In this document: piece by piece, positions 3,189 through 56,949 of the stretch
Position numbering within the stretch: position 1 is the first letter of the stretch
Layout of the letters: each line of letters opens with the position of its first letter
Source: Candidatus Nomurabacteria bacterium
GTDB taxonomy: Bacteria; Patescibacteriota; Minisyncoccia; Phycocordibacterales; UBA9973
Reading direction: 5' to 3'
NCBI GenBank assembly: GCA_026395965.1
Contig: JAPLXS010000006.1
Location: forward strand, 233,165-297,164
Length of the DNA stretch: 64,000 bases
Program-made: the position numbers and the translations under genes
The notes under the pieces: generated by a model
Told to the model about the DNA's origin: nothing
Seen by the model: the letters and a program-made list of their open reading frames with translations, nothing else
Databases searched by the model: none

Positions 3189-3386
3189 ATGAGTTATCTT
3201 GATGATGAAGAATTAAAAATAGGTATTGATGGAGAGGAAGAGGAAGACCTTGAAGAAAGTGATTCCGATGAAAATTTCCACGACTTACTTGATAGTGATA
3301 ATGACCTAGAATTAGACGACGCAGATGAGGAGGAAGAAGACCTCTTTGGTGATGAAGTCAAAGGACTAGAAGAACCAGAACTATAA
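3189..3386 (+). CDS. Small highly acidic protein (65 aa, about 50% D/E)
   Basis: ORF followed by strong terminator; composition DDEEL...EEEEDLEESDSDE...DDADEEEED. Confidence 0.4.
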   Translation: MSYLDDEELKIGIDGEEEEDLEESDSDENFHDLLDSDNDLELDDADEEEEDLFGDEVKGLEEPEL

Positions 3387-3391
3387 TAAAT

Positions 3392-3424
3392 AAAACCCCG
3401 ACACTATGTCGGGGTTTTATTTAT
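3392..3424. terminator. Bidirectional rho-independent terminator (acidic ORF on +, tyrS on -)
   Basis: aaaaccccgacactatgtcggggtttta with flanking A/T runs. Confidence 0.8.
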
Positions 3425-8584: not shown

Positions 8585-8827
8585 AATATTGTTTTGTAGA
8601 TGATATCAATTGTATCCCCTACTCTGTATAACTTATATATTAATACTTACTATTATTACTATGGGTGTGGATATGTGGATTACTTAAATATGTTTTTAAA
8701 ATAAAGGTATTTTTTAAATTATGTTTTTTAGAAATAAAATTAATTGTTAATTACTTTCCGGATTTTAAATAAACGAATATTTTTCCACATTTTTATTTTT
8801 TATAAACACACTTTATCCACATACTTA
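8585..8827. promoter_or_regulatory. Candidate oriC (dnaA-dnaN intergenic) with four DnaA-box 9-mers
   Basis: tgtggatat 8666-8674, tgtggatta 8674-8682, ttttccaca 8781-8789, ttatccaca 8813-8821; AT-rich spacer. Confidence 0.6.
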
Positions 8828-10192
8828 TTATTTAAACATTATTCGAATCTTTTCAATTTCTTGTAATAATGACGGGTCGGTTTTTAGATCAGATTTTATT
8901 TTCAGGTGAGAGTGAATTACTGTTGTATGATCTCTATCCCCCAATTTTTGACCTATCAATGGATATGAGATATTGAAATCTTCACGGAGTAAATACATTG
9001 CGACTTGTCGGGCTCTAACTATTTCCTTTCTTCTTGTTTTTTCGTATATAACTTCTTCGGCTAAACCATAATAATCAGAAACAATTTTAACAATATCTTT
9101 AATAGCAACAGTCTTTTTGGGTCTAATGTTATTTTTTATAAGCATTTTAACCTCAGCTATTGTTAGGGATCTGTTTTTTAATTGAGACTGGCAAATAACA
9201 GTATTTAAACTACCCTCAAGCTCTCTTATATTCCCCTCGAGTGACTCTGCTAAAGAAGCAACTATTTCTGGTTCTATAATACAGTTTGTGGATTCAAATT
9301 TTGCTTTTATAATAGCAACTCTTGATTCGTAATCAGGCTCAACTATTTGTACTGTCATACCAGAAGCAAATCTAGACTGTAGTCTCTCTTCTAACCCTTG
9401 GATAAAATTGGGATGTTTATCTGAAGAAAATATTATCTGCTTGTTACTCTCGTATAAAGTATTAAAAAGATGAAATAACTCTTCTTGAGTCTTATCTTTA
9501 CCAGAAATAAATTGAATATCGTCCATAATGATAACATCATATTTTCTATATTTTTCTTTAAAAGAGTTTGGGTTTTTGTTTTGAATTGAGTTTATGTAAT
9601 CGATTGTAAATCTCTCTAGGCTGACATAATAAATCTTTTTTAAAGGGTAATTTATCTTTATTGTGTTGCCTATTGCCTGAATCATATGTGTTTTTCCTAA
9701 TCCTGTGCCACCATATACAAAAAACGGGTTATAGTTTTGCCCAGGGTTCGATATTATTGCTTGAGATACAGCATATGCCAGCTCATTGAATGGTCCAACT
9801 ATAAAAGAATTGAAATTATATTTTGGGTTTAAATTATCGTCTTTATTTACATATAAATCGTTGAGTGGAAGTTCTTTGTTTATATTTATAGGAGTTTTTG
9901 GGGTAGCTTTTTCTTCGTTCTTAGTTTCAGCGTCGTTTTTGGAATCTTGCTTGTGTATATAGTATTCAACAGCACGAATACTCTCTTCGTTGCTAATAAG
10001 GGTTTTTAAAATAAGTTTATGAAACTTGTTATATAGCCAATCTTTAACAAATTCATTTGGAACCCCAACATGAATAACACCACTATCCTCTTTGATTATA
10101 TAGGTATTTTTAAACCAAGTAGTAAAATTTGCCTTTGAAATACCTAATTCAATTTCAGATAGACATTTATTCCAGAGTTCTTTTGTTTCCAT
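8828..10192 (-). CDS. dnaA: Chromosomal replication initiator DnaA
   Basis: Walker A GGTGLGKTHM, DnaA signature helix-turn-helix VARQVAMYLLRE at C-terminus. Confidence 0.95.
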   Translation of the reverse strand: METKELWNKCLSEIELGISKANFTTWFKNTYIIKEDSGVIHVGVPNEFVKDWLYNKFHKLILKTLISNEESIRAVEYYIHKQDSKNDAETKNEEKATPKTPININKELPLNDLYVNKDDNLNPKYNFNSFIVGPFNELAYAVSQAIISNPGQNYNPFFVYGGTGLGKTHMIQAIGNTIKINYPLKKIYYVSLERFTIDYINSIQNKNPNSFKEKYRKYDVIIMDDIQFISGKDKTQEELFHLFNTLYESNKQIIFSSDKHPNFIQGLEERLQSRFASGMTVQIVEPDYESRVAIIKAKFESTNCIIEPEIVASLAESLEGNIRELEGSLNTVICQSQLKNRSLTIAEVKMLIKNNIRPKKTVAIKDIVKIVSDYYGLAEEVIYEKTRRKEIVRARQVAMYLLREDFNISYPLIGQKLGDRDHTTVIHSHLKIKSDLKTDPSLLQEIEKIRIMFK

Positions 10193-10310
10193 CCCGTTAG
10201 AGATAGTCCCCCAAAGGTGGGACGTATCATATTGATTATTATTAATTATTTATACAGTTAGTAATTATACAAACCACCATTAGAATATAACGAACATATC
10301 TCTAACGGGA
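10192..10310 (-). other. Inverted-repeat leader element, site 1: TCCCGTTAGAGATA ... TATCTCTAACGGGA, 3' arm abutting the dnaA ATG
   Basis: 14-bp perfect IR separated by about 90 bp; same architecture at 18395-18672 and 42583-42703 with covarying outer positions. Confidence 0.6.
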
Positions 10311-10383
10311 TCCATAAGGACCATTATACATTGTTTTTTAATTACCCAACAATAAAATATCTTAATTAACATGTTGATATCAT

Positions 10384-10442
10384 GTGGATATGTTTTGCTT
10401 TCTATGTTGCAATATTCGACAATATAGTATATATTATCCAAT
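10384..10442. promoter_or_regulatory. DnaA-box-like 9-mers upstream of dnaA / rpmH
   Basis: tgtggatat 10384-10392 and ttatccaat 10434-10442. Confidence 0.4.
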
Positions 10443-10583
10443 ATGTCTCAAACGTACCAACCAAATAAAAGAAAAAGAGCTAAAACACACGGATTTCTAG
10501 TTCGTGCTAAAACACCAAACGGTAGAAAGGTAAATACTGCTCGTCGTCAAAAAGGTAGAGCAAACGTATCAGTAAAGAAATAA
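10443..10583 (+). CDS. rpmH: 50S ribosomal protein L34
   Basis: 46 aa [30 protein letters not shown]... below the ORF-track length cutoff; canonical rpmH-rnpA synteny. Confidence 0.9.
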
Positions 10584-10585
10584 AC

Positions 10586-10906
10586 ATGCTTTCAAAGAAA
10601 AAACGGGTTACAAAAGGAGTTTTTAATATCCTACTAAAGGATGGAAAAACCTTTAGTAACTCGCTTTTTTTGTTTTATTTTATAAAAGCACAATCCCCTC
10701 ATTACGCAGTTGTGGCACCAAAGGGTATATTTAAAACAGCTACACAAAGAAATAAATATAGAAGGATTGGTTATAACATACTACGTTCTCTTCCTGTAAA
10801 ATCAGGTTCCGGTATTTTTATGTATAAGAAACCAGCTCTTATTGCTGAAAACAAAGATATTAAGGAAAGTATGGTTTCTTTGTTGAATAAAATAAATATT
10901 ATATAA
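10586..10906 (+). CDS. rnpA: RNase P protein component
   Basis: 106 aa basic protein directly after rpmH. Confidence 0.8.
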   Translation: MLSKKKRVTKGVFNILLKDGKTFSNSLFLFYFIKAQSPHYAVVAPKGIFKTATQRNKYRRIGYNILRSLPVKSGSGIFMYKKPALIAENKDIKESMVSLLNKINII

Positions 10907-10907
10907 A

Positions 10908-11114
10908 ATGGGTAAATCAATAATTTGGCTTATAAACATATACCAAAAAACACCCTTAAAATCACACTCATCGTGTGTTTTTTTACCAACTTGTTCTGAA
11001 TACACCAAACAATCAATTGTAAAATATGGAGCTTTTAAAGGGGTTTTACGAGGTATTATAAGGATATTTCGTTGCCATCCTTGGCAGAAAAATAGATATG
11101 ACCCGGTAAGATAG
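10908..11114 (+). CDS. yidD: Membrane protein insertion efficiency factor YidD
   Basis: 68 aa, motif CxFxPTCSEY...CHPW; synteny rnpA-yidD-yidC. Confidence 0.85.
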   Translation: MGKSIIWLINIYQKTPLKSHSSCVFLPTCSEYTKQSIVKYGAFKGVLRGIIRIFRCHPWQKNRYDPVR

Positions 11115-12477: not shown

Positions 12478-12634
12478 GAATTAATAATTACGAATTAGGA
12501 ATAAAAAATACCATGACAGTGTCATGGTATTTTTTATCTAGTATTATTTTTTTAATTTTTAATTATTGTTCTCTCCCCTATTCCAATTCCTAATTCCTAA
12601 TTCCTAATTCGTAATTATTAATTCTTAATTATTT
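12471..12634. repeat. Heptamer array (12471-12502), terminator hairpin (12503-12536), then inverted 8-unit heptamer array (12579-12634)
   Basis: taattaagaattaataattacgaattaggaata | aaaaaataccatgacagtgtcatggtatttttt | tattccaattcctaattcctaattcctaattcgtaattattaattcttaattattt; stop codons of jag and of the 503 aa gene lie inside the arrays. Confidence 0.7.
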
Positions 12635-35614: not shown

Positions 35615-35938
35615 ATGAAACAAAAATCAATTATTAAAATAGTTTTTATTTTGTTTGCAGTTATTTCATCACTCTTTATATTTTCAGCTGATGGTTCTTT
35701 TGATAAACCCAAAGAAGAAAATAAAGTTTTATCTATAGAGTCAGTTGTTACTAAGCCGATTGTTTTAGCACAGAATACAACCTCTATTAAAAAACCAATT
35801 ATTGCAAAAAAATCACCAGTTAAAAAGATTACAAAAAAGAAAAAGAAGATTGCAAAAAAGAAAAAAAGAGTTAATTTAAACCCCCCAATCATTACTATGG
35901 ATACTGCTCCACACTCAGCAAAAAATAAATCAAACTAA
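35615..35938 (+). CDS. Small secreted lysine-rich protein
   Basis: Signal peptide then KKPIIAKKSPVKKITKKKKKIAKKKKR. Confidence 0.45.
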   Translation: MKQKSIIKIVFILFAVISSLFIFSADGSFDKPKEENKVLSIESVVTKPIVLAQNTTSIKKPIIAKKSPVKKITKKKKKIAKKKKRVNLNPPIITMDTAPHSAKNKSN

Positions 35939-35941
35939 ACT

Positions 35942-35973
35942 AAATCCCCCGAAGCGAAAGCTTCGGGGGATTT
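35942..35973. terminator. Bidirectional rho-independent terminator
   Basis: aaatcccccgaagcgaaagcttcgggggattt. Confidence 0.85.
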
Positions 35974-35990
35974 AGTTTTTTGATTCGTAA

Positions 35991-43301: not shown

Positions 43302-44240
43302 ATGATTACCTATTTAGAACAATTAAAAAGAGAATTTCTTGAACATGTAGAAATAGAGAAAGGCAATAGTTTGAAAACTGTAAATAATTACGATTATTAT
43401 ATTGGCCGTTTTTTTGATTTTGCAAAAATTTCTGAACCAAAAGAAATATCTGATGAAAAAATTCGTGAATATCGTTTATATTTAAATCGTCAGCCTGGTG
43501 TAAAAATCCGTGGACAAGAATCTGGTAATCTTAAAAAAAATACTCAAAATTATCATCTAATTGCATTGAGGTCTTTTCTTAAATATTTAATGAAAAGAGG
43601 TATCACTTCCCTATCACCTGAACGTATAGACTTGGCAAAAATAAAGGAAAGAAGTTTGGATTTAATATCTAGCGCAGAGCTTAATAGACTATTGTCTGCC
43701 CCTCTTACTTTAGCATCTACAGATAATAAATTCGACGGCCCCAAAAAATTAAGAGACAAGGCAATTTTAGAATTATTTTTTTCTACAGGTTTACGCTTGT
43801 CAGAATTGTGTTCTATAAATAGGGATCTTGATTTATCTAAAGATGAATTCTCTATTCGTGGTAAAGGAGAAAAAGTCCGAGTTGTATTTTTATCTGACTC
43901 AGCCAAAGATGCAATACGCGAATATTTAAAAATCCGCAAAGATATGGATGAACCACTTTTTATTCAATACTCTCAAAATAGCGGAAAAAGTAACAGACTC
44001 ACTCCACGCTCAGTAGAACGAATTGTAAAATACTATGCTATCGTTGCCGGTATTTCAAAAAAAGTTACACCCCATATCATAAGACACTCATTTGCTACAG
44101 ACTTGCTTTCAAATGGTGCAGATATTCGTTCTGTCCAAATGATGCTAGGTCACGCCAATATTGCTACTACTCAGATATATACTCATATTACAGACAAACA
44201 ACTTCGTGATGTTCATAAGAAATTTCATAGTAAAAAATAA
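43302..44240 (+). CDS. xerD: Tyrosine site-specific recombinase XerC/XerD family
   Basis: R..HxxR..Y catalytic set: HIIRHSFATDLL...LGHANIATTQIYTH. Confidence 0.85.
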   Translation: MITYLEQLKREFLEHVEIEKGNSLKTVNNYDYYIGRFFDFAKISEPKEISDEKIREYRLYLNRQPGVKIRGQESGNLKKNTQNYHLIALRSFLKYLMKRGITSLSPERIDLAKIKERSLDLISSAELNRLLSAPLTLASTDNKFDGPKKLRDKAILELFFSTGLRLSELCSINRDLDLSKDEFSIRGKGEKVRVVFLSDSAKDAIREYLKIRKDMDEPLFIQYSQNSGKSNRLTPRSVERIVKYYAIVAGISKKVTPHIIRHSFATDLLSNGADIRSVQMMLGHANIATTQIYTHITDKQLRDVHKKFHSKK

Positions 44241-44978: not shown

Positions 44979-45749
44979 ATGAAGATTATCTCTTGGAATA
45001 CAAATGGATTAAGAGCAACTTCAAAACAAGGGTATTTTATGCCTTTGTTTTCTTTTAATGACCCAGATATTGTTTGTCTTCAAGAAACAAAATGTGAACC
45101 AGATCAACTTGATGAAAAAACAAGAAATTTAAATGGATATAACTCATATTTTTCATATTCCAAAAATAAAAAAGGATATAGTGGTGTAGGAATCTATTCA
45201 AAAATAAAACCAGAAAATGTAGAATACGGGATAGGCATAGAAAAATTTGACGACGAAGGAAGAACAATTGTCGCTTATTATAAAAACTTTGTATTGATAA
45301 ACTGTTACTTCCCTAATGGTGGTGCCAGTGAAGAAAGATTAAAATACAAACTTGAATTTTATGATGAATTTTTAAAATTTATAAATAATTTAAAAAATCA
45401 AAATAAAAATGTTGTTTTCTGCGGTGATGTAAATACTGCTCATAATGAAATAGATTTAGCACGACCAAAATCAAACAAAGACAATACAGGATTCTTGCCA
45501 ATAGAGCGAGCATGGTTGGATAAAGTTATAAATAACGAATGGGTTGATGTGTTCCGTAACCTATATCCAGACGAAAAGGATGTTTATACATACTGGGACA
45601 TGAAAACCAGAGCCAGAGATAGAAATGTTGGATGGCGAATAGATTATTTTTTTATAAATAAATCATTCTTAACTAAGATAAAAAACTTCAAGACACTAGC
45701 AGATTATTATGGCTCAGACCATTGCCCCATAATGATTGAAATAAAATAA
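44979..45749 (+). CDS. xth: Exodeoxyribonuclease III / AP endonuclease (start set at MKIISWN, inside the longer ORF 44961)
   Basis: MKIISWNTNGLRA, CLQETK, final DHCP motif. Confidence 0.85.
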   Translation: MKIISWNTNGLRATSKQGYFMPLFSFNDPDIVCLQETKCEPDQLDEKTRNLNGYNSYFSYSKNKKGYSGVGIYSKIKPENVEYGIGIEKFDDEGRTIVAYYKNFVLINCYFPNGGASEERLKYKLEFYDEFLKFINNLKNQNKNVVFCGDVNTAHNEIDLARPKSNKDNTGFLPIERAWLDKVINNEWVDVFRNLYPDEKDVYTYWDMKTRARDRNVGWRIDYFFINKSFLTKIKNFKTLADYYGSDHCPIMIEIK

Positions 45750-45790
45750 AATAACCCAGGAATATTTCCTGGGTTGTTTTATTTTATTTT
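45747..45790. terminator. Bidirectional rho-independent terminator
   Basis: aaaataacccaggaatatttcctgggttgttttatttt. Confidence 0.8.
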
Positions 45791-46756
45791 TAAACTTTTC
45801 TCTTGTTCCTCAGTTATAGTTCCTTTTAAAAGATTAATAATTACTTGAGATTGTAAATCTTTAGATAAAAATTCAAATGGTCCTGTAATTTTTTTTCCAT
45901 CAGTTTCCCATTTTCTAACTGCCTCACCCAATATTTTAGGATTTAATTCAACATATATAATATCATCGACGTCTACCCCCTTTTCTTTTGCTTTATTTAT
46001 TTGTGCATATTTGTGTTCTTTGGCACTTAAATTTGTTGTAAATTGTACGCCAATAGATTTTTCTTCAAAAGTGAAATCTTGTCTGTTTATACCCACTCCT
46101 CTTACTTTGTGTTTTGATGAGATAATAAAATCAATCTTATTTTCAACATCCTCGAAAGCATTCGCTTCTCTAACAGATATACCCAAATCGGAACGATCGA
46201 TAGCTATTCTCTCAAGAACTCCCATCATGATTTTTTCCGCCATTATTCCTAATTGCTTACTTTCTTTTCCAGATCTTTCTGCTATTTCCCCATATGCTTT
46301 TGAAACCAAAGCATCACTTTTTTGTGTTTTGTCGGATAGAACTGTAGCTAATTCTTTATTTAATTTTGAATAAAGAGCATCTTCAGACATTTTTTCAAGC
46401 ATAATTCTGATTAATTTTTTACCATCACCAGACTGAATCAATGTTTCTGGTAGGCAAAAGTTTATTCCGTATCTTCTTGCTGATACTATTTGACCAATAC
46501 TAAATTTTTCATCCCGATTATTGTCGATAAAAAAGCCTTTGTTGTGTTTGTCATAGCTAACAAATTTTTTCTCAGAACCCTCTTTTCCGATCTCTAATTC
46601 TAGGTTTTTATTTAGTATATTAATACTATTTTCAATTTCTAGTATATTTTCATTGATTATTAAGTCAATTTCTTGTCCCAAGAAAGAGCTAGTTGGGCTA
46701 TTTTGTGTCTCATAGGTGTCCTTTATAAATACTTGTTCCATTCTATTGAAATTCAT
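45779..46756 (-). CDS. Hypothetical protein
   Basis: 325 aa ORF, no motif recognised. Confidence 0.4.
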   Translation of the reverse strand: MNFNRMEQVFIKDTYETQNSPTSSFLGQEIDLIINENILEIENSINILNKNLELEIGKEGSEKKFVSYDKHNKGFFIDNNRDEKFSIGQIVSARRYGINFCLPETLIQSGDGKKLIRIMLEKMSEDALYSKLNKELATVLSDKTQKSDALVSKAYGEIAERSGKESKQLGIMAEKIMMGVLERIAIDRSDLGISVREANAFEDVENKIDFIISSKHKVRGVGINRQDFTFEEKSIGVQFTTNLSAKEHKYAQINKAKEKGVDVDDIIYVELNPKILGEAVRKWETDGKKITGPFEFLSKDLQSQVIINLLKGTITEEQEKSLKIK

Positions 46757-46795
46757 ATATTTATTATATATGAATTAATAAATTACACCATTCGT

Positions 46796-48337
46796 CTAAA
46801 TACCATGTTTTTTATAGAGTTTCACAACTTCATCTTTCTCTAGCTTGTCTTTCTTTTCTTTTCCTCTCTCTCCGAGTATTCTAAGTTCATTATCTCCTAG
46901 TGTATCCAACGATTTAACCATTTCTCCTAAGCGGTCCTTTGTATTCTTTGATGGATCATCTAGTACTTCCTCAAGAAGAGCGCTCAGTATCCATCCCATA
47001 CGAGGACTTGGTTTCACGTGTAACTCATTTATCATATATTCTCCGTCTATAGCTAGCTGACCAACTGATATTGGATCATGAAGAACCTCTTCTATCATTG
47101 CATGGTATTTGCGTAAACGATAAGGCGCTTCTTTCTTTTTCATACCAACTCGGTCACATTCTCTTATTTTCATTAGCTCCCAGATGTTTTCTTTTCCTAC
47201 ATTTACAACCACACGACGAACAGCAGAAAGTGATATCATCTCTGTATCTGAAAAAAACATGTGACTTCGAACGAGTTTCACAACTAAATCAGTAGTTTTT
47301 TGAGAAAACTTTAATCTATTCATTATTTGTTTAGTCATTCGAGCTCCTACAACTTCGTGTCCATAAAATGTGTATTTACCCTTTCCTCCAGCTTTTGTTC
47401 CATCCCATCTTCTGGTTTTAGGTTTTCCAATATCATGAAACAAAGCTGCTAAACGAATTTCAAGCGACCAGTCTTTATTTCCTGCATGACCAAGTGCATG
47501 AAGCAAATGTTCCCATACATCATATATATGTTCACCTTTTTGTTCACAACCAATTCCCTCTTCAAGTTCAGGGATAATATATTTAAGTAGATTAAGTTTA
47601 GAAAGAAGACCAATACCTACGATGGGATTGTCGGACATAATAATTTTTGAAAATTCATCTCTTATTCTTTCGAATGATATATTTTTTATTAGATTAGAAT
47701 TATCTACAACAGCCTGTATTGTTTCATTTGTTAATGCAAAGCCAAGTTGGGTTGAAAAACGTATTGCACGTATCATTCGCAATGCGTCTTCGTTGAATCT
47801 GTCATTTGGATTACCTACAGCTCTTATAATTTTGTCCTTTATATCCTTTTGTCCGTTATAGTAGTCAATAATTTGTCCTTTGTTAGGGTTATAGGAAAGA
47901 GCATTTATAGTAAAATCACGTCTCATAAGATCATCTTCTATCTTTTTGCTAAATTTTACCTCGTCTGGATGTCTAAAATCACTATATTTAGCTTCAATTC
48001 TATATGGGGTAACTTCTACTATATGATATTTTGTTTCAGGTGAAACACTATCAGATGTGGTGTCGGATGTTTCACATGTAACATTTTGAGTAATTTTTGG
48101 TATACAAACACCAACTGTGCCAAATTTATTCTCATAAATTGTTTTTTCAAAAAGTGAAACTATCTCTTCTGGGTTTGCATTTGTAGTAATATCCCAGTCG
48201 TTTGGTTCCCTATTCATTATTAGGTCACGGACACATCCTCCTACAAGAAAAACCTCGAATCCAGAGTTTTCGAGTGTTTCAGTTACATGTGTAACATAAT
48301 TTGGTATTAAGTCGTTATTTATTATGTTTTTTAACAT
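46796..48337 (-). CDS. cca: CCA-adding tRNA nucleotidyltransferase with HD domain (start moved to MLKNIINN to avoid tRNA overlap)
   Basis: Pol-beta motif LVGGCVRDL, HD motif LFHDIGKPK. Confidence 0.8.
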   Translation of the reverse strand: MLKNIINNDLIPNYVTHVTETLENSGFEVFLVGGCVRDLIMNREPNDWDITTNANPEEIVSLFEKTIYENKFGTVGVCIPKITQNVTCETSDTTSDSVSPETKYHIVEVTPYRIEAKYSDFRHPDEVKFSKKIEDDLMRRDFTINALSYNPNKGQIIDYYNGQKDIKDKIIRAVGNPNDRFNEDALRMIRAIRFSTQLGFALTNETIQAVVDNSNLIKNISFERIRDEFSKIIMSDNPIVGIGLLSKLNLLKYIIPELEEGIGCEQKGEHIYDVWEHLLHALGHAGNKDWSLEIRLAALFHDIGKPKTRRWDGTKAGGKGKYTFYGHEVVGARMTKQIMNRLKFSQKTTDLVVKLVRSHMFFSDTEMISLSAVRRVVVNVGKENIWELMKIRECDRVGMKKKEAPYRLRKYHAMIEEVLHDPISVGQLAIDGEYMINELHVKPSPRMGWILSALLEEVLDDPSKNTKDRLGEMVKSLDTLGDNELRILGERGKEKKDKLEKDEVVKLYKKHGI

Positions 48338-48346
48338 TATATTTTG

Positions 48347-48418
48347 TGCCCCTGGAGGGAATCGAACCCCCATCACTGATTCCGAAGATCAGTACTTTAT
48401 CCATTAAGCTACAAGGGC
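48347..48418 (-). tRNA. tRNA-Arg (anticodon UCG)
   Basis: Cloverleaf: acceptor GCCCTTG/CAGGGGC, anticodon loop CTTCGGA, T-arm GGTTCGATTCC. Confidence 0.8.
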
Positions 48419-48855
48419 TTTTCGTTTTTAAACCATTTAAATTCTACCGCAGTTTTCCTTCTGTGGCAATTGGCACACCTAACTTCACACTTTTTGATTT
48501 CTTCTTTAACTTTTTCTAGAGGGTAACGAGATTTCATTAAGGATGAAACAGCTTTAAATTTAATACCTTTATTTTTACTATGATCAAATTCAAGAACAGT
48601 AATATCTGATTCTGCACAATCAACACAAGGGTTATTTAATAAATATTCCTTTACAAAATTATGCATTATAGATTTTAACTCTAGATTTCTTCTTTGAGTT
48701 TTTTCTAGGTAGTAGTTTTTGTTTTTTTGATAATGATTTCTAATTAATTGCCTAGTACATTCTTTACATTGATATTGCAATAAATTTAAAGATCTAATCT
48801 TAAAATTAAACTGATCCTCCGTCTTCATTATCTTACATTTTGTGCATTTACGCAT
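48409..48855 (-). CDS. HNH endonuclease (zinc-finger type), abutting tRNA-Arg
   Basis: CxxC...CxxC, VLEFDH, CANCHRRK. Confidence 0.6.
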   Translation of the reverse strand: MRKCTKCKIMKTEDQFNFKIRSLNLLQYQCKECTRQLIRNHYQKNKNYYLEKTQRRNLELKSIMHNFVKEYLLNNPCVDCAESDITVLEFDHSKNKGIKFKAVSSLMKSRYPLEKVKEEIKKCEVRCANCHRRKTAVEFKWFKNEKPL

Positions 48856-48960
48856 TGAAGTAATTATACTTTATTTAAATTCGAATTACAACATATATTC
48901 GAATTAAAATTGCAAAAAAAAAGATAAAATAGTATACTTAAAAAGTAAAATCATATATTT

Positions 48961-49031
48961 GCGGGATTGGTTTAGTGGTAGAACACGTCCTTGCCAAGGA
49001 TGAGACAGGAGTCCGATTCTCCTATCCCGCA
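48961..49031 (+). tRNA. tRNA-Gly (anticodon GCC)
   Basis: Acceptor GCGGGAT/ATCCCGC, anticodon loop TTGCCAA, T-arm GAGTCCGATTCTC. Confidence 0.8.
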
Positions 49032-49033
49032 CA

Positions 49034-49069
49034 ATAATAAAGACCAGCCTCGGCTGGTCTTTATTATTG
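49034..49069 (+). terminator. Rho-independent terminator after tRNA-Gly
   Basis: aataataaagaccagcctcggctggtctttattatt. Confidence 0.8.
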
Positions 49070-49268
49070 TGCTGAACAAAAAAGCAAACTACCTATTTAG
49101 ATAAATTACATACAATATAATTGAATAATATTCAACCAGATTATATCTACTCAACCTCTACAACAACACAAATATTTAAAGGCCACAAATAATAATATAA
49201 CATTATAAATGTCTTTGATGTTTATGAGTCCTTTATACACAGTAAAAACCCTTAAAAATTAATAATTT

Positions 49269-49277
49269 TGTGGATAA
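49269..49277 (-). promoter_or_regulatory. Perfect DnaA box (TTATCCACA on - strand)
   Basis: tgtggataa in a 465 bp AT-rich ORF-free region. Confidence 0.35.
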
Positions 49278-49534
49278 GTATGTGTGTATTGTTTATAAAA
49301 GACATATTTAAAGATAGAATATTTGAAGGACAAAACAAAAGAACATTTTATTAGCCTTATATTTAAGCATATATTTGAATTTATACCCACACTGAAGATT
49401 CTTGGTGTCCAATAACTAAAAAGTGTTTCACGTGAAACGATATTTAGTGTTACACATGTAACATATCAATAAAATGTCTCTGTTGGTTGTTATGTTGATT
49501 CAATTTATGTTAAAATTTATACATATTATACATA

Positions 49535-49948
49535 ATGTATAAACAAGCTATTTGTATGAAGAATTTTACATCAAATACTCAAAAAATAGGAGAACTTGGT
49601 GAAGGTGTAGCATGTAATTACTTAATTAAACATAGTTTTTTGATTTTAGAGAGAAATTATACTAAGAAATGGGGTGAAATTGATATAATTGCTCAAAAAG
49701 GGGATAAAAGATATTTTATTGAGGTTAAGTCAAAGAATGTATCTAAATTAGATGTTTCACATGTAACAAGTAGGCCAGAAGAGGGTATGCATCCATGGAA
49801 AATGAAAAGATTAAGAAGGGTAGTAGAGACTTATCTTATCAGCAAGCGACTTGGGTATGTAGAATGGCAATTTGATCTACTTGTTGTATATTTGGATATA
49901 TATAATAGAAAGGCAAGGGTAGAGGTAGTGGAGAATGTTATTTTATAG
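49535..49948 (+). CDS. YraN/UPF0102 family endonuclease-like protein
   Basis: GE..A..YL...F.ILERNY....GEIDII......YFIEVKS. Confidence 0.65.
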   Translation: MYKQAICMKNFTSNTQKIGELGEGVACNYLIKHSFLILERNYTKKWGEIDIIAQKGDKRYFIEVKSKNVSKLDVSHVTSRPEEGMHPWKMKRLRRVVETYLISKRLGYVEWQFDLLVVYLDIYNRKARVEVVENVIL

Positions 49949-50133
49949 ATGTGGCTTGGATAAGGGGTAGTCTAGACTACCGTTTCGGGTACTTTTCAAT
50001 TTTGATCAACATTAAACTATGAAAGCATTATATTTAATAATAATCTTGATTACAATAAACAGAAAAGCCTTTCGACTGTCGCCTCTCGGCGCGATTCTCT
50101 AATCGCCTACGCATATATAGCAGTCTGTTTGCT

Positions 50134-50191
50134 ATCCCGCACCATATTAAAAAAACACCTTGATAGGTGTTTTTTTAATATGGTGCGGGAT
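50134..50191. terminator. 26-bp-arm perfect palindrome incorporating the 3' acceptor end of the adjacent tRNA
   Basis: atcccgcaccatattaaaaaaacacc ttgata ggtgtttttttaatatggtgcgggat. Confidence 0.6.
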
Positions 50192-50254
50192 AAGGGAGTC
50201 GAACCCTTCACCACAGTTTGGAAAACTGTTATTTTACCGATAAACTAATCCCGC
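50181..50254 (-). tRNA. tRNA-Gly (anticodon UCC), CCA encoded
   Basis: Acceptor GCGGGAT, anticodon stem ACAGT/ACTGT with loop TTTCCAA, T-arm GGTTCGACTCC, 3' CACCA. Confidence 0.75.
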
Positions 50255-50318
50255 AGTAGATTTATAATAGCAGGTTTTAGAGATTATTTCAAGAAAGGGA
50301 GGGGAGAGATATTGATCA

Positions 50319-50543
50319 AGTGTATGCTTATTGGTTATTGTGTGAACAATAATAAATGCAGGGATATCTTTCTCTTTGAGAAGAGTTGCATATATGTACG
50401 GGAACGCGAGTATGCTTATCGACTACTGCGTAAGCAGGGATATCTTTCTTTACGATAACAGTTGTATGTATAGATGAGAACGTGAGTACGCTTATCGACT
50501 ACCACGTAAACCGGGATATCTTTCTCTACGAGAACAGTATGCC
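50319..50543. repeat. About three imperfect tandem copies of a 76 bp unit between two tRNAs
   Basis: Units begin gagtaYgcttatcgactacYRcgtaa...gggatatctttctYt; both halves of each unit are conserved. Confidence 0.7.
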
Positions 50544-50629
50544 TTTTGTATTTTTTCAAAGCAAAGCTTCTCAAAAATATACAAAAGCCTTTCGATTCCC
50601 GGAAGATTCAACCTCAAGGTTGAATCTCA

Positions 50630-50690
50630 CCCCGACAATAAGTAAAAAGACCACTAATTTATTTAGTGGTCTTTTTACTTATTGTCGGGG
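50630..50690. terminator. 28-bp-arm perfect palindrome incorporating the tRNA-Pro 3' end
   Basis: ccccgacaataagtaaaaagaccactaa ttta ttagtggtctttttacttattgtcgggg. Confidence 0.6.
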
Positions 50691-50755
50691 TGCCGGGAAT
50701 CGAACCCGGCCCTTATGTTCCCAAAACATAGATACTACCGATATACTACACCCCG
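50685..50755 (-). tRNA. tRNA-Pro (anticodon UGG)
   Basis: Acceptor CGGGGTG/CACCCCG, anticodon stem TATGT/ACATA with loop TTTGGGA, T-arm GGGTTCGATTCCC. Confidence 0.75.
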
Positions 50756-52418: not shown

Positions 52419-52580
52419 TATGTTAATTCTATATTTTTTTTACAAATAAAGAATGTTATTAGAATAATAATTCGACCGTTTTCAAACGATCCCTAATAAA
52501 TAGGTATGATATCATTATATACCAAGGTAATTTTAAAACAAGTGTTTTAGCCTGTTGACATATTTGATAAATGTATCATT

Positions 52581-52630
52581 AAAAAATGCAGTAAATTTTG
52601 TATTAGCAAAATTTACTGCATTTTTTATTT
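52581..52630. terminator. Rho-independent terminator
   Basis: aaaaaatgcagtaaattttgtattagcaaaatttactgcatttttt. Confidence 0.75.
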
Positions 52631-54168: not shown

Positions 54169-54405
54169 GCGACTTTTTTGTCGCTTTTACAACACAGAGA
54201 TTAGACCACCCGTTTGTATTGGGAGTTTATCAAAACATGTATGATTGATTTAGAACAAAACTGAAAATGGAATGTGTAATTCATAAAAAAATCGATATCG
54301 TGACTGCATTAAAAAAGCTAACATTTAAATATAAACTTTTAAATTTCGATATTATTATAATACTCTAAAAACAGGGTTTTGTCTATGGCAAAGAATTTTT
54401 ATTAT

Positions 54406-54439
54406 AAAAACCCTCTAATCTAGATTAGAGGGTTTTTAT
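54406..54439. terminator. Rho-independent terminator
   Basis: aaaaaccctctaatctagattagagggttttt. Confidence 0.8.
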
Positions 54440-54447
54440 AATTTTAT

Positions 54448-56373: not shown

Positions 56374-56411
56374 CCTAACTCACTTTACGCTATAGCGTAA
56401 AGTGAGTTAGG
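56374..56411. repeat. 38-bp perfect palindrome CCTAACTCAC-TTTACGCTATAGCGTAAA-GTGAGTTAGG, 3' of the wHTH/Cas2-like gene
   Basis: Shares the 16-bp core TTACGCTATAGCGTAA with the palindrome at 56916-56949. Confidence 0.7.
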
Positions 56412-56420
56412 AAAAATTAT

Positions 56421-56897
56421 TTACTTAAATCCTTTTTCTAATTTGAATGTTTTTACTAGATCTTTTAAGCCTATCTCTTTTATGTACTCCATAAATTCTT
56501 TTGGAAGAGGGGAAGGTCCAACCCATACACTTCTTTGAATCATAATAAAACCAAATTTGATCAATGCCCTGCGGAACCAGTCACGCTCATTCTTTTTATC
56601 TTCTGGTATATCATAAAGAAGAAGCAAATTTTTTGGACCATTGTTTTCTATTGGTTCAAATGTTTTTAATTGATATTTTTTATTTTTAGATAAAAATTCT
56701 TTCCCTTTTTTATTCAAAATATAATATTCATTTTTTTTATCTAAATACCCGTTATTGTATAGTTCAGCAAATTTGTTTCTAACGGATTGTTTTTTGTAAT
56801 TTTGTAGAGTAGGAAGAAAAAACGCACTCATAGGAATACCTTTATAATAAAATTTAGGAGTATTTAATATTTCTAATATATCATTTTTTATAGACAT
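56421..56897 (-). CDS. Hypothetical small protein, probable N-terminal wHTH plus C-terminal Cas2/VapD-fold-like domain
   Basis: LLLYDIPEDKKNERDWFRRALIKFGFIMIQRSVWVG resembles the Cas2 core YDI...R...L...G.R.Q.SV; no CRISPR or cas neighbours. Confidence 0.35.
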   Translation of the reverse strand: MSIKNDILEILNTPKFYYKGIPMSAFFLPTLQNYKKQSVRNKFAELYNNGYLDKKNEYYILNKKGKEFLSKNKKYQLKTFEPIENNGPKNLLLLYDIPEDKKNERDWFRRALIKFGFIMIQRSVWVGPSPLPKEFMEYIKEIGLKDLVKTFKLEKGFK

Positions 56898-56915: not shown

Positions 56916-56949
56916 TAACCCGCATTACGCTATAGCGTAATGCGGGTTA
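56916..56949. repeat. 34-bp perfect palindrome TAACCCGCA-TTACGCTATAGCGTAA-TGCGGGTTA, 5' of the same gene
   Basis: Same core as 56374-56411; outer arm covaries. Confidence 0.7.

Follow-up and report, generated by a model that had tools for sequence, protein, structure and literature searches.

Inverted repeats and hairpins at gene 3' ends are known from several described systems. Bidirectional Rho-independent terminators are recognised by a G+C stem, a loop of 3–8 nt and a U-tract 3' of the stem on both strands. Repetitive extragenic palindromes (REP), bacterial interspersed mosaic elements (BIME) and repeats resembling miniature inverted-repeat transposable elements (MITE), such as REP, Correia and RPE, carry a fixed terminal sequence and are dispersed over unrelated intergenic sites. 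The integron attC site and the CTX-phage attP(+) are folded single-strand recombination sites, and duplications running from the T-loop to the tRNA 3' end are typical of tyrosine-integrase attachment (att) sites of the T-loop class. Here, we analyse a 64,000-nucleotide stretch of a Candidatus Nomurabacteria genome (contig JAPLXS010000006.1; hereafter the window), a bacterial chromosome segment of ~32% G+C whose gene content includes trigger factor, ClpP, RNase Y, HU, polynucleotide phosphorylase (PNPase), NusA and the CCA-adding enzyme, and in which the genes for tRNA-Gly(UCC) and tRNA-Pro(UGG) both end within long perfect palindromes. At the anatomical level, we have high confidence in the explanation of these palindromes: each marks the point where a tRNA gene and a convergent hairpin element meet head to head and share a putative bidirectional terminator. 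In the reading that we prefer, and to which we give about equal weight for and against, the element would be an insertion-type repeat that acts at the DNA level.

Both tRNA genes, called with ARAGORN and the Rfam covariance models, lie on the minus strand, so that downstream of them means toward lower coordinates, and the palindromes at their ends are the two longest perfect inverted repeats of the window (Table 1). The right arm of palindrome 1 ends, on its outer side, in the last 12 nt of tRNA-Gly(UCC) (50181–50192, TATCCCGCACCA, CCA included), while the right arm of palindrome 2 takes in the last 9 nt of tRNA-Pro(UGG) (CACCCCGAC), that is, the acceptor 3' strand and discriminator with no CCA. 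In sequence, tRNA-Gly(UCC) is the same as in metagenome-assembled genomes labelled Ca. Saccharibacteria and Ca. Nomurabacteria, which makes a genome of the Patescibacteria (CPR) most likely. A preliminary description of this DNA had noticed both palindromes; they are real, and slightly longer than it had them (arms of 28 and 30 nt rather than 26 and 28, and 12 rather than 11 nt of tRNA-Gly). With a per-position match probability of ~0.28 at this base composition, a perfect 28-nt arm is expected ~1e-10 times per window, and a chance origin is excluded. Mis-joins can also create palindromes, and a Logan assembly (SRR20698642, our locus L008) breaks in a repeat array described below: its contig SRR20698642_26958 ends at window position 50539, inside the tandem half-modules, which suggests repeat-induced assembly ambiguity or population heterogeneity there. 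This independent assembly is nevertheless identical to the window over 46535–50539, Gly palindrome included, and the architecture is seen again in dozens of contigs that come from different samples, such that chance or assembly artefact, taken together, can for practical purposes be set aside.

The inner ~18–21 nt of each arm comprise an A-tract, a G+C stem, a 4–5-nt loop and a T-tract, which, judged from sequence, should serve as a terminator on either strand and have each of the features of a bidirectional terminator listed above. Unlike such terminators, the arms run 9–12 nt further, into the tRNA acceptor strand on one side and, on the other, into an inverted copy of it that belongs to the element. 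A simple terminator scanner listed neither putative terminator, since in both the longer stem takes in the T-tract. Terminator-type palindromes in the window are nearly always perfect over arms of 17–24 nt (for example at 1127–1164, 3386–3424, 12501–12537, 35937–35978, 45739–45789, 52580–52627 and 54401–54442), and some of them include the stop codons of both convergent genes. The inner part of the two tRNA palindromes is ordinary for this genome; the palindromes are, as had been claimed, longer than any other terminator-like repeat here, but perfection does not set them apart. The near-universal perfection of terminator arms hints that, genome-wide, both strands are strongly constrained or one arm is corrected to match the other. 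By comparison, the palindrome that follows tRNA-Gly(GCC), which the preliminary description had missed, takes in just 4 nt of the tRNA, and no element lies on its far side.

Also missed were the membership of the left arms in a larger element and an inverted copy, at 50591–50602, of the T-loop and T-stem 3' strand of tRNA-Pro (TTCGATTCCCGG), which lies 25 nt beyond the acceptor copy and behind an 11-bp hairpin; the left flanks of the two palindromes have the motif AAAAGCCTTTCGA in common. The element is a conserved modular unit of ~110–190 bp, with four covarying hairpins and no open reading frame (ORF). We compared it across 80 related metagenome loci found via the neighbouring UPF0102/YraN gene (52–82% identity), and built a covariance model, R1, from 24 copies, which finds 66 significant copies in 88 sources (the 64 kb window and ~450 kb of related loci). 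Along the element strand, a module opens with the 5' strand of hairpin P1, which is complementary to the 3' strand of the tRNA T-stem and to some of the T-loop. Next come hairpin Pa, whose loop is (U)UAC(A), a CAGUAYACC junction, and hairpin P2, in which a UUUUC/GAAAAG base carries a variable tip. After YUUUCG there is a copy of the tRNA T-loop and T-stem 3' strand (the T segment), and the dinucleotide AC leads on to hairpin P3, with a 9-bp stem and a loop that is usually GNAG; the module closes with a copy of the acceptor 3' strand with the discriminator and C. All four helices (five helix segments counted) show double compensatory changes, with 87% of helix cells paired, versus 62% in shuffles and 33–53% with slid partners, and a covariation score of 0.44, versus 0.06–0.10 with slid partners.

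In the relatives, tRNA-Gly(UCC) and tRNA-Pro(UGG) are likewise often followed by perfect palindromes of 25–31 nt that include the acceptor end, and the far arm of these long palindromes is always the end of the conserved element on the opposite strand. The spacer and terminator sequences vary from genome to genome with their symmetry kept: where both acceptor copies are intact, 16 of 27 junctions are fully complementary and 23 have at most 2 mismatches, yet the same arms are just ~66% identical between genomes. The outer arms are probably kept identical by arm-to-arm correction.

The window holds two such elements. Element B is intact, its minimum-free-energy fold being the consensus (z −9.3), and it is preceded by tandem 76-nt repeats in which GGGATATCTTTCT recurs at 50361, 50437 and 50513; against the modules of relatives, these are duplicated 5' half-modules, consisting of the P1 5' strand and Pa followed by a small hairpin of the GNG-AGUA-CNC type. 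Element A is degenerate, with partial R1 matches at 49964–50082 (16 bits) and 50088–50142 (23.5 bits) and a fold z-score of just −3.8. In place of its T-stem copy stands a 30-nt hairpin, GTCGCCTCTCGGCGCGATTCTCTAATCGCC, a motif that is also found in elements of loci L012 and L015; it seems to be an additional module that the family carries optionally.

The association with tRNA genes is strict. Every copy with downstream sequence, in the window, in the related loci and in IMG/VR, is convergent on a tRNA, namely Gly-UCC, Gly-GCC, Pro or Arg, and once Ser. Among tRNAs with at least 200 nt downstream, the element is present at 21/62 Gly-UCC, 16/54 Pro-UGG, 6/62 Gly-GCC and 6/59 Arg-UCG genes. The arms track the particular tRNA that they face: the T segment has at most 1 mismatch to the neighbouring tRNA in 41 of 51 copies, the acceptor 9-mer is identical to it in 25 of 51, and lineage-specific tRNA variants (CCCAG, CGCCCCG, CACCTCG, TCCGATT) are mirrored in the arms. 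When 268 tRNAs were examined, all 16 palindromes overlapping a tRNA by at least 9 nt lay at element-bearing loci, and relatives without the element have no palindrome that swallows the acceptor end. The preliminary description would have been refuted by palindromes unique to its two loci; in fact, related genomes have them at four tRNA species, and one IMG/VR contig adds a fifth, Ser(GCU), though only where the element is present.

That contig came from motif scans of IMG/VR, which gave one true extra copy, the other matches being chance. It lies in an unrelated neighbourhood, is convergent on tRNA-Ser(GCU) and has Ser-type arms. In this contig (L209, IMGVR_UViG_3300000970_000154, region 9015–10912), the copy stands between the tRNA-Ser(GCU) gene and a tRNA-Ser-like gene with the odd anticodon ACU (10531–10618), directly beside genes for a large serine recombinase (9015–10370) and ParB, and the site may be a prophage end (prophage/host junction). 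UPF0102 is absent from this tRNA-Ser locus, and a link between the element and UPF0102 was rejected on that ground.

Occupied and empty sites can be compared directly. Along the tRNA strand, an occupied site reads tRNA[S], spacer/terminator, S' (split by P3), core and, usually, a distal direct copy of S, where S is the segment of that tRNA from T-loop to discriminator (17–23 nt). The direct S copies bound the unit, and the conserved DNA beyond the distal S is the same as that which directly follows the tRNA in element-less relatives; one locus keeps a deletion remnant, a fragment and the distal S. In the window itself the distal copies are poor, that of element A being decayed (49951–49972) and element B having none. 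Presence and copy number vary among relatives, in which arrays, half-modules and fused modules occur, as do chimeric arms (in L027, a Pro-type 5' arm is combined with Gly-type 3' arms) and swaps of P3 between otherwise near-identical copies (L012 versus L018). The exact complement of the last 17–23 nt of the tRNA gene opens ~60% of arrays; in the remaining ~40%, this 5' arm is absent, decayed or chimeric (both figures are a by-eye tally of array starts). The arm includes the complement of the A-rich trailer (TTT-GTGC), and TGG only where CCA is gene-encoded; therefore, the gene was copied, and not the mature tRNA. On the same grounds, we rejected the idea that a tRNA-primed retroelement had copied a primer-binding site from mature tRNA.

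Each palindrome is thus a normal terminator palindrome with arms of ~18–21 nt, lengthened by S on one side and by S' on the other, S' being an inverted copy of S that P3 splits exactly at the boundary of T-stem and acceptor; hairpins Pa and P2 form the core, and the final S is a direct copy. In our preferred reading, the element would be non-autonomous and specific for tRNA-gene 3' ends, would be gained and lost by recombination at S, would form arrays and decay, and would have its hairpins kept Watson–Crick on both strands.

An integrase-driven origin had been suggested before; on this view, the tRNA-end copies would be attL/attR scars of phage or island integration and excision. Indirect support for tRNA 3' ends as recombination targets comes from the direct tRNA-end repeats, from presence and absence among relatives, and from repeated tRNA inversions: the four tRNA genes around UPF0102 (Arg-UCG, Gly-GCC, Gly-UCC and Pro-UGG; window 48346–50755, L009–L088) are found in 11 arrangements of order and orientation across 39 loci, and {Arg, Gly-GCC} and {Gly-UCC, Pro} are each seen inverted as a unit, also in element-less loci. 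The duplicated segment runs from T-loop to 3' end, the 17–23-nt S copies are bounding direct repeats, and one copy adjoins the possible prophage end with its large serine recombinase and ParB. With described tRNA-gene att sites, including miniature and satellite forms, the element has in common the tRNA 3' end from the T-loop onward as target, bounding direct repeats, tandem arrays and, among relatives, local inversions of tRNA genes; in Thermococcales, an integrase can invert DNA flanked either by att sites or by non-att sequences (PMC5495485). No integrase-bounded island emerged, however. The bounded DNA is 110–190 bp with no ORF, which by itself largely refutes such scars; no integrase was found inside or at the edge of it; the same structured core stands at different tRNAs in many genomes; and the tRNA-adjacent copy is inverted and split by a hairpin, which is not a product of simple integration. 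We therefore consider scars of this kind quite improbable. Neither neighbouring gene that had been brought into the argument can be tied to the palindromes: the XerD-like recombinase (43302–44240) is a housekeeping-type Xer ~6 kb away (NF040815, 235 bits, with the XerD and XerC models below cut-offs), and the HNH gene is sporadic, being present in 7 related loci only. The HNH-like ORF (48409–48855, minus strand) encodes 148 aa, is Cys-rich, has no Pfam or NCBIfam match and lies between tRNA-Arg and tRNA-Gly(GCC); it looks like a sporadic, possibly mobile insertion.

The conserved fold can also be told as that of an RNA. The element could be a structured RNA, either a small RNA or the 3' untranslated region (3'-UTR) of the upstream gene, transcribed toward the tRNA and ending at the shared terminator. 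Its 5' arm would pair with the split 3' arms in a minihelix mimic of the tRNA acceptor and T stems, handled by or competing for RNase P/Z, the CCA-adding enzyme, a synthetase or a toxin, and the palindrome would arise only as two convergent genes have the same 3' end. We favour the DNA repeat and hold the RNA to be a serious rival, possible if somewhat doubtful. In its favour are the conserved multi-helix fold with covariation, the conserved loop and junction motifs, the invariant orientation relative to the tRNA and the sense orientation of the T-loop sequence on the element strand; furthermore, element B folds as the consensus with its acceptor copy single-stranded before the terminator, and arrays start 3–30 nt past the UPF0102 stop in several genomes and end in a terminator. 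The pairing statistics do not fit so well. Pa, P2 and P3 hold 7 G-U and 9 A-C among ~1300 pairs (each ~0.5%), both so near zero that the strand is not decidable from them, whereas the tRNAs of the same loci, as controls, hold 144 G-U versus 15 A-C in 2720 stem pairs, their T and anticodon stems having 6–8% G-U and ~0.5% A-C. In an RNA read from one strand, G-U should be far commoner than A-C, and in the element helices it is not; from this deficit we infer that the hairpins are constrained as Watson–Crick on both strands, unlike those of an ordinary RNA gene. A promoter scan found a promoter-like TTGAAA-17-TATTAT for tRNA-Gly(UCC) (50292–50264, minus strand) and none convincing for the element, and copy number, half-modules and presence/absence vary as in selfish repeats.

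Among known tRNA mimics (tmRNA, YrlA Y RNA, viral tRNA-like structures and mascRNA), the likeness lies in the acceptor/T-stem sequence, the discriminator with C(CA) end, and the possession of the trailer and terminator of the tRNA. Unlike these, the element has its T-loop bases paired within P1, so that no T-loop is formed, has its 3' strand interrupted by P3, often lacks the 5' acceptor strand (the ~60% of arrays tallied above have a 5' arm whose sequence complements acceptor and T-stem, and the mimic helix is incomplete in many of the others), includes the gene trailer, and has no wobble signature. It has no Rfam match either: with Rfam 15, the tRNAs alone reach the gathering score in the window, and a permissive search of the window region and four loci with intact copies gave only spurious miRNA-type hairpin matches on the palindromes. 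If the RNA reading were true, a tRNA-specific acceptor/T-arm mimic would be encoded beside its own tRNA, for which we know of no described precedent.

The palindromes might instead act on the tRNA transcript itself. The predicted folds bear out the earlier suggestion that the hairpin competes with the acceptor stem: a pre-tRNA terminated at the inner U-tract should keep the cloverleaf and a terminator hairpin, while read-through RNAs are predicted to form the full 28–30-bp hairpin and lose the acceptor stem (−67.3 and −57.3 kcal/mol). A read-through duplex that hides the acceptor 3' strand could be an RNase III or processing site, or a fail-safe against 3'-extended tRNA, and RNase Y, PNPase and the CCA-adding enzyme are encoded nearby. 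We regard such a role as unlikely. The inner stem and U-tract should end transcription before the outer arm; about two-thirds of the orthologous tRNAs in relatives lack the feature; and the core, P3, T-segment copy and distal direct repeat are left unexplained. Moreover, with a terminator between it and the tRNA, the acceptor part of S' is almost always perfect, but it is consistently degenerate where none intervenes (GTAAGG... for GTGCGG...), consistent with selection against pairing with the acceptor. Thus, of the proposal that the palindromes are processing or termination devices, termination holds for the core, which is readable as a terminator on both strands. The extra length is no processing device, because transcripts from the tRNA promoter never reach the outer arm if termination is normal, because element-less relatives lack such palindromes, and because unseparated acceptor copies are degenerate. 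The reading that we favour is that the perfect outer arms are by-products, tolerated because the terminator stops tRNA transcription before S'.

Several points weigh against an insertion-type DNA repeat. No recombinase, transposase or other protein is tied to the element, the one tyrosine recombinase of the window being that Xer-like protein. Among the loci compared, we saw neither an excised form nor a fresh insertion that distinguishes near-identical genomes, and the empty sites could equally be precise deletions between direct repeats. How one core gets arms that match different tRNAs is unexplained by a DNA reading. Four helices and several unpaired motifs (the UAC loop, CAGUAYACC, UUUUC/GAAAAG and the GNAG loop), long kept at orthologous sites, imply selection, which an RNA function explains equally; arrays, like a 3'-UTR or a small RNA, follow immediately on a stop codon and run up to and include a terminator. 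Furthermore, the sampling of elements is biased, coming from one neighbourhood around UPF0102 and one IMG/VR match.

Taking these points into account, the DNA repeat that we prefer can be compared with known mobile units. With REP, BIME and MITE-like repeats it shares short length, the lack of an ORF, abundant hairpins with Watson–Crick stems, a position at gene 3' ends, arrays or mosaics and variable copy number. It is unlike them in that its arms copy the adjacent tRNA 3' end and differ with the tRNA (Gly, Pro, Arg, Ser) where a fixed terminal sequence would be expected, in that the core is kept across tRNAs, in being always tRNA-convergent rather than dispersed over unrelated intergenic sites of the window and ~450 kb of related loci, and in that no RAYT or transposase was identified. 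With the integron attC and the CTX-phage attP(+), which is used with XerCD, the likeness is of a hairpin stem that rebuilds a duplex chromosomal target, with Watson–Crick stems, branch or extra-helical features, and arrays. In contrast to these, the element has arms that vary with the target, lacks R/L core motifs (the attC cores RYYYAAC/GTTRRRY were not seen in the element consensus) and is accompanied by no integron integrase (integron-integrase models score far below cut-offs). We know of no single-stranded replicon in this setting.

As a speculative extension that we consider doubtful, the elements may be very small mobile units of a new class, without ORFs, whose target-matched arms direct them to the 3' ends of tRNA genes. 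Pairing of S with S' would rebuild a duplex version of the tRNA end, much as a folded attC or CTX attP does. Insertion at S, carried out in trans by a recombinase or nuclease, would duplicate S and place the inverted copy beside the tRNA; re-targeting would proceed by replacement or correction of arms; and the same activity would account for how often tRNA genes are flipped in this lineage.

The TIGR-Tas arrays of candidate phyla radiation (CPR) bacteria and phages (PMC12045711) also have tandem structured units, two short variable segments in conserved flanks and a terminator end. The units here are 76–140 nt rather than 36 nt, and the 'variable' segments equal the adjacent tRNA; with no box C (RUGAUGA) or box D (CUGA) in the element consensus and no Nop-domain Tas gene nearby, where the ORFs have other Pfam assignments, a TIGR array was rejected. 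We found no description of the element in the literature on tRNA-like and minihelix RNAs, CPR repeats, tRNA-gene palindromes or folded single-strand att sites, and, as far as Rfam and that literature show, the family is apparently undescribed. If our preferred reading is true, streamlined CPR-type genomes carry small hairpin elements with arms copied from the adjacent tRNA gene, which poses the question of how one conserved core acquires target-matched arms. It would also give a handle on recombination at tRNA 3' ends without an island or a cis integrase, on the scrambled order and orientation of tRNA genes among close relatives, and on how long perfect palindromes arise and are tolerated beside essential genes. 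Under either reading, DNA or RNA, the covariance model of the element is now usable on whole genomes and metatranscriptomes.

Table 1. Positions of the tRNA genes, palindromes, putative terminators and element parts (window coordinates).
Feature	Position	Strand	Remarks
tRNA-Gly(UCC)	50181–50254	minus	ARAGORN; Rfam tRNA 63.3 bits; CCA encoded
tRNA-Pro(UGG)	50685–50755	minus	ARAGORN and Rfam (3' end placed at 50684 or 50685); CCA not encoded
Palindrome 1	50133–50192		arms 50133–50160/50165–50192, 28 nt, 100% complementary; 4-nt loop
Palindrome 2	50628–50692		arms 50628–50657/50663–50692, 30 nt, 100% complementary; 5-nt loop
Putative bidirectional intrinsic terminator 1	50145–50180		TATTAAAAAAACACCT-TGAT-AGGTGTTTTTTTAATA; common to element A and tRNA-Gly(UCC)
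Putative bidirectional intrinsic terminator 2	50638–50682		common to element B and tRNA-Pro; from sequence and fold
Comparison palindrome	49029–49072		21-nt arms; after tRNA-Gly(GCC), 48961–49032 (plus)
Element A	49951–50144	plus	degenerate; begins 3 nt past UPF0102/YraN stop codon (49946–49948)
Element A, 5' arm	49951–49972		decayed complement of tRNA-Gly end
Element A, Pa region	49973–49992		
Element A, long P2	49992–50069		
Element A, T-loop copy	50071–50077		TTCGACT
Element A, extra hairpin insert	50078–50107		
Element A, P3	50108–50133		decayed
Element A, acceptor copy	50134–50144		ATCCCGCACCA; perfect
Tandem 76-nt repeats	50358–50538	plus	2.4 copies (TRF), leading into element B
Element B	50511–50637	plus	intact module; R1 84.7 bits, E 3e-18
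Element B, P1 5' strand	50511–50520		
Element B, Pa	50521–50534		
Element B, junction	50535–50543		CAGTATGCC
Element B, P2	50544–50587		
Element B, copy of tRNA-Pro T-loop and T-stem 3' strand	50591–50602		
Element B, P3 hairpin	50603–50627		
Element B, acceptor copy	50628–50637		CACCCCGACA

Further observations concern the surroundings of these loci. The gene for the CCA-adding enzyme (46796–48418, minus strand) begins ~10 nt downstream of tRNA-Arg(UCG), and as no terminator separates the two, they are probably co-transcribed; this synteny is kept in 56 loci, and CCA is not encoded in three of the four tRNAs of the window. Upstream of UPF0102, an intergenic stretch carries the DnaA-box-like TTATACACA and a perfect minus-strand TTATCCACA at 49233–49241 and 49269–49277, and many related loci have kept the stretch around them (~49225–49310; ...cctttatccaca...tgtggataactatgtgtgtattgtttataaaagaca). 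Four further boxes form a second cluster at 8666–8821; the box count of the whole window is not above chance. Finally, two related perfect palindromes at 56374–56411 and 56916–56949, whose common centre reads TACGCTATAG and, across the axis, CTATAGCGTA, bracket an ORF (56421–56897, minus strand) that encodes a PaaX-central/Cas2-like protein of 158 aa (Pfam PF20803; NCBIfam cas2, 33.6 bits).

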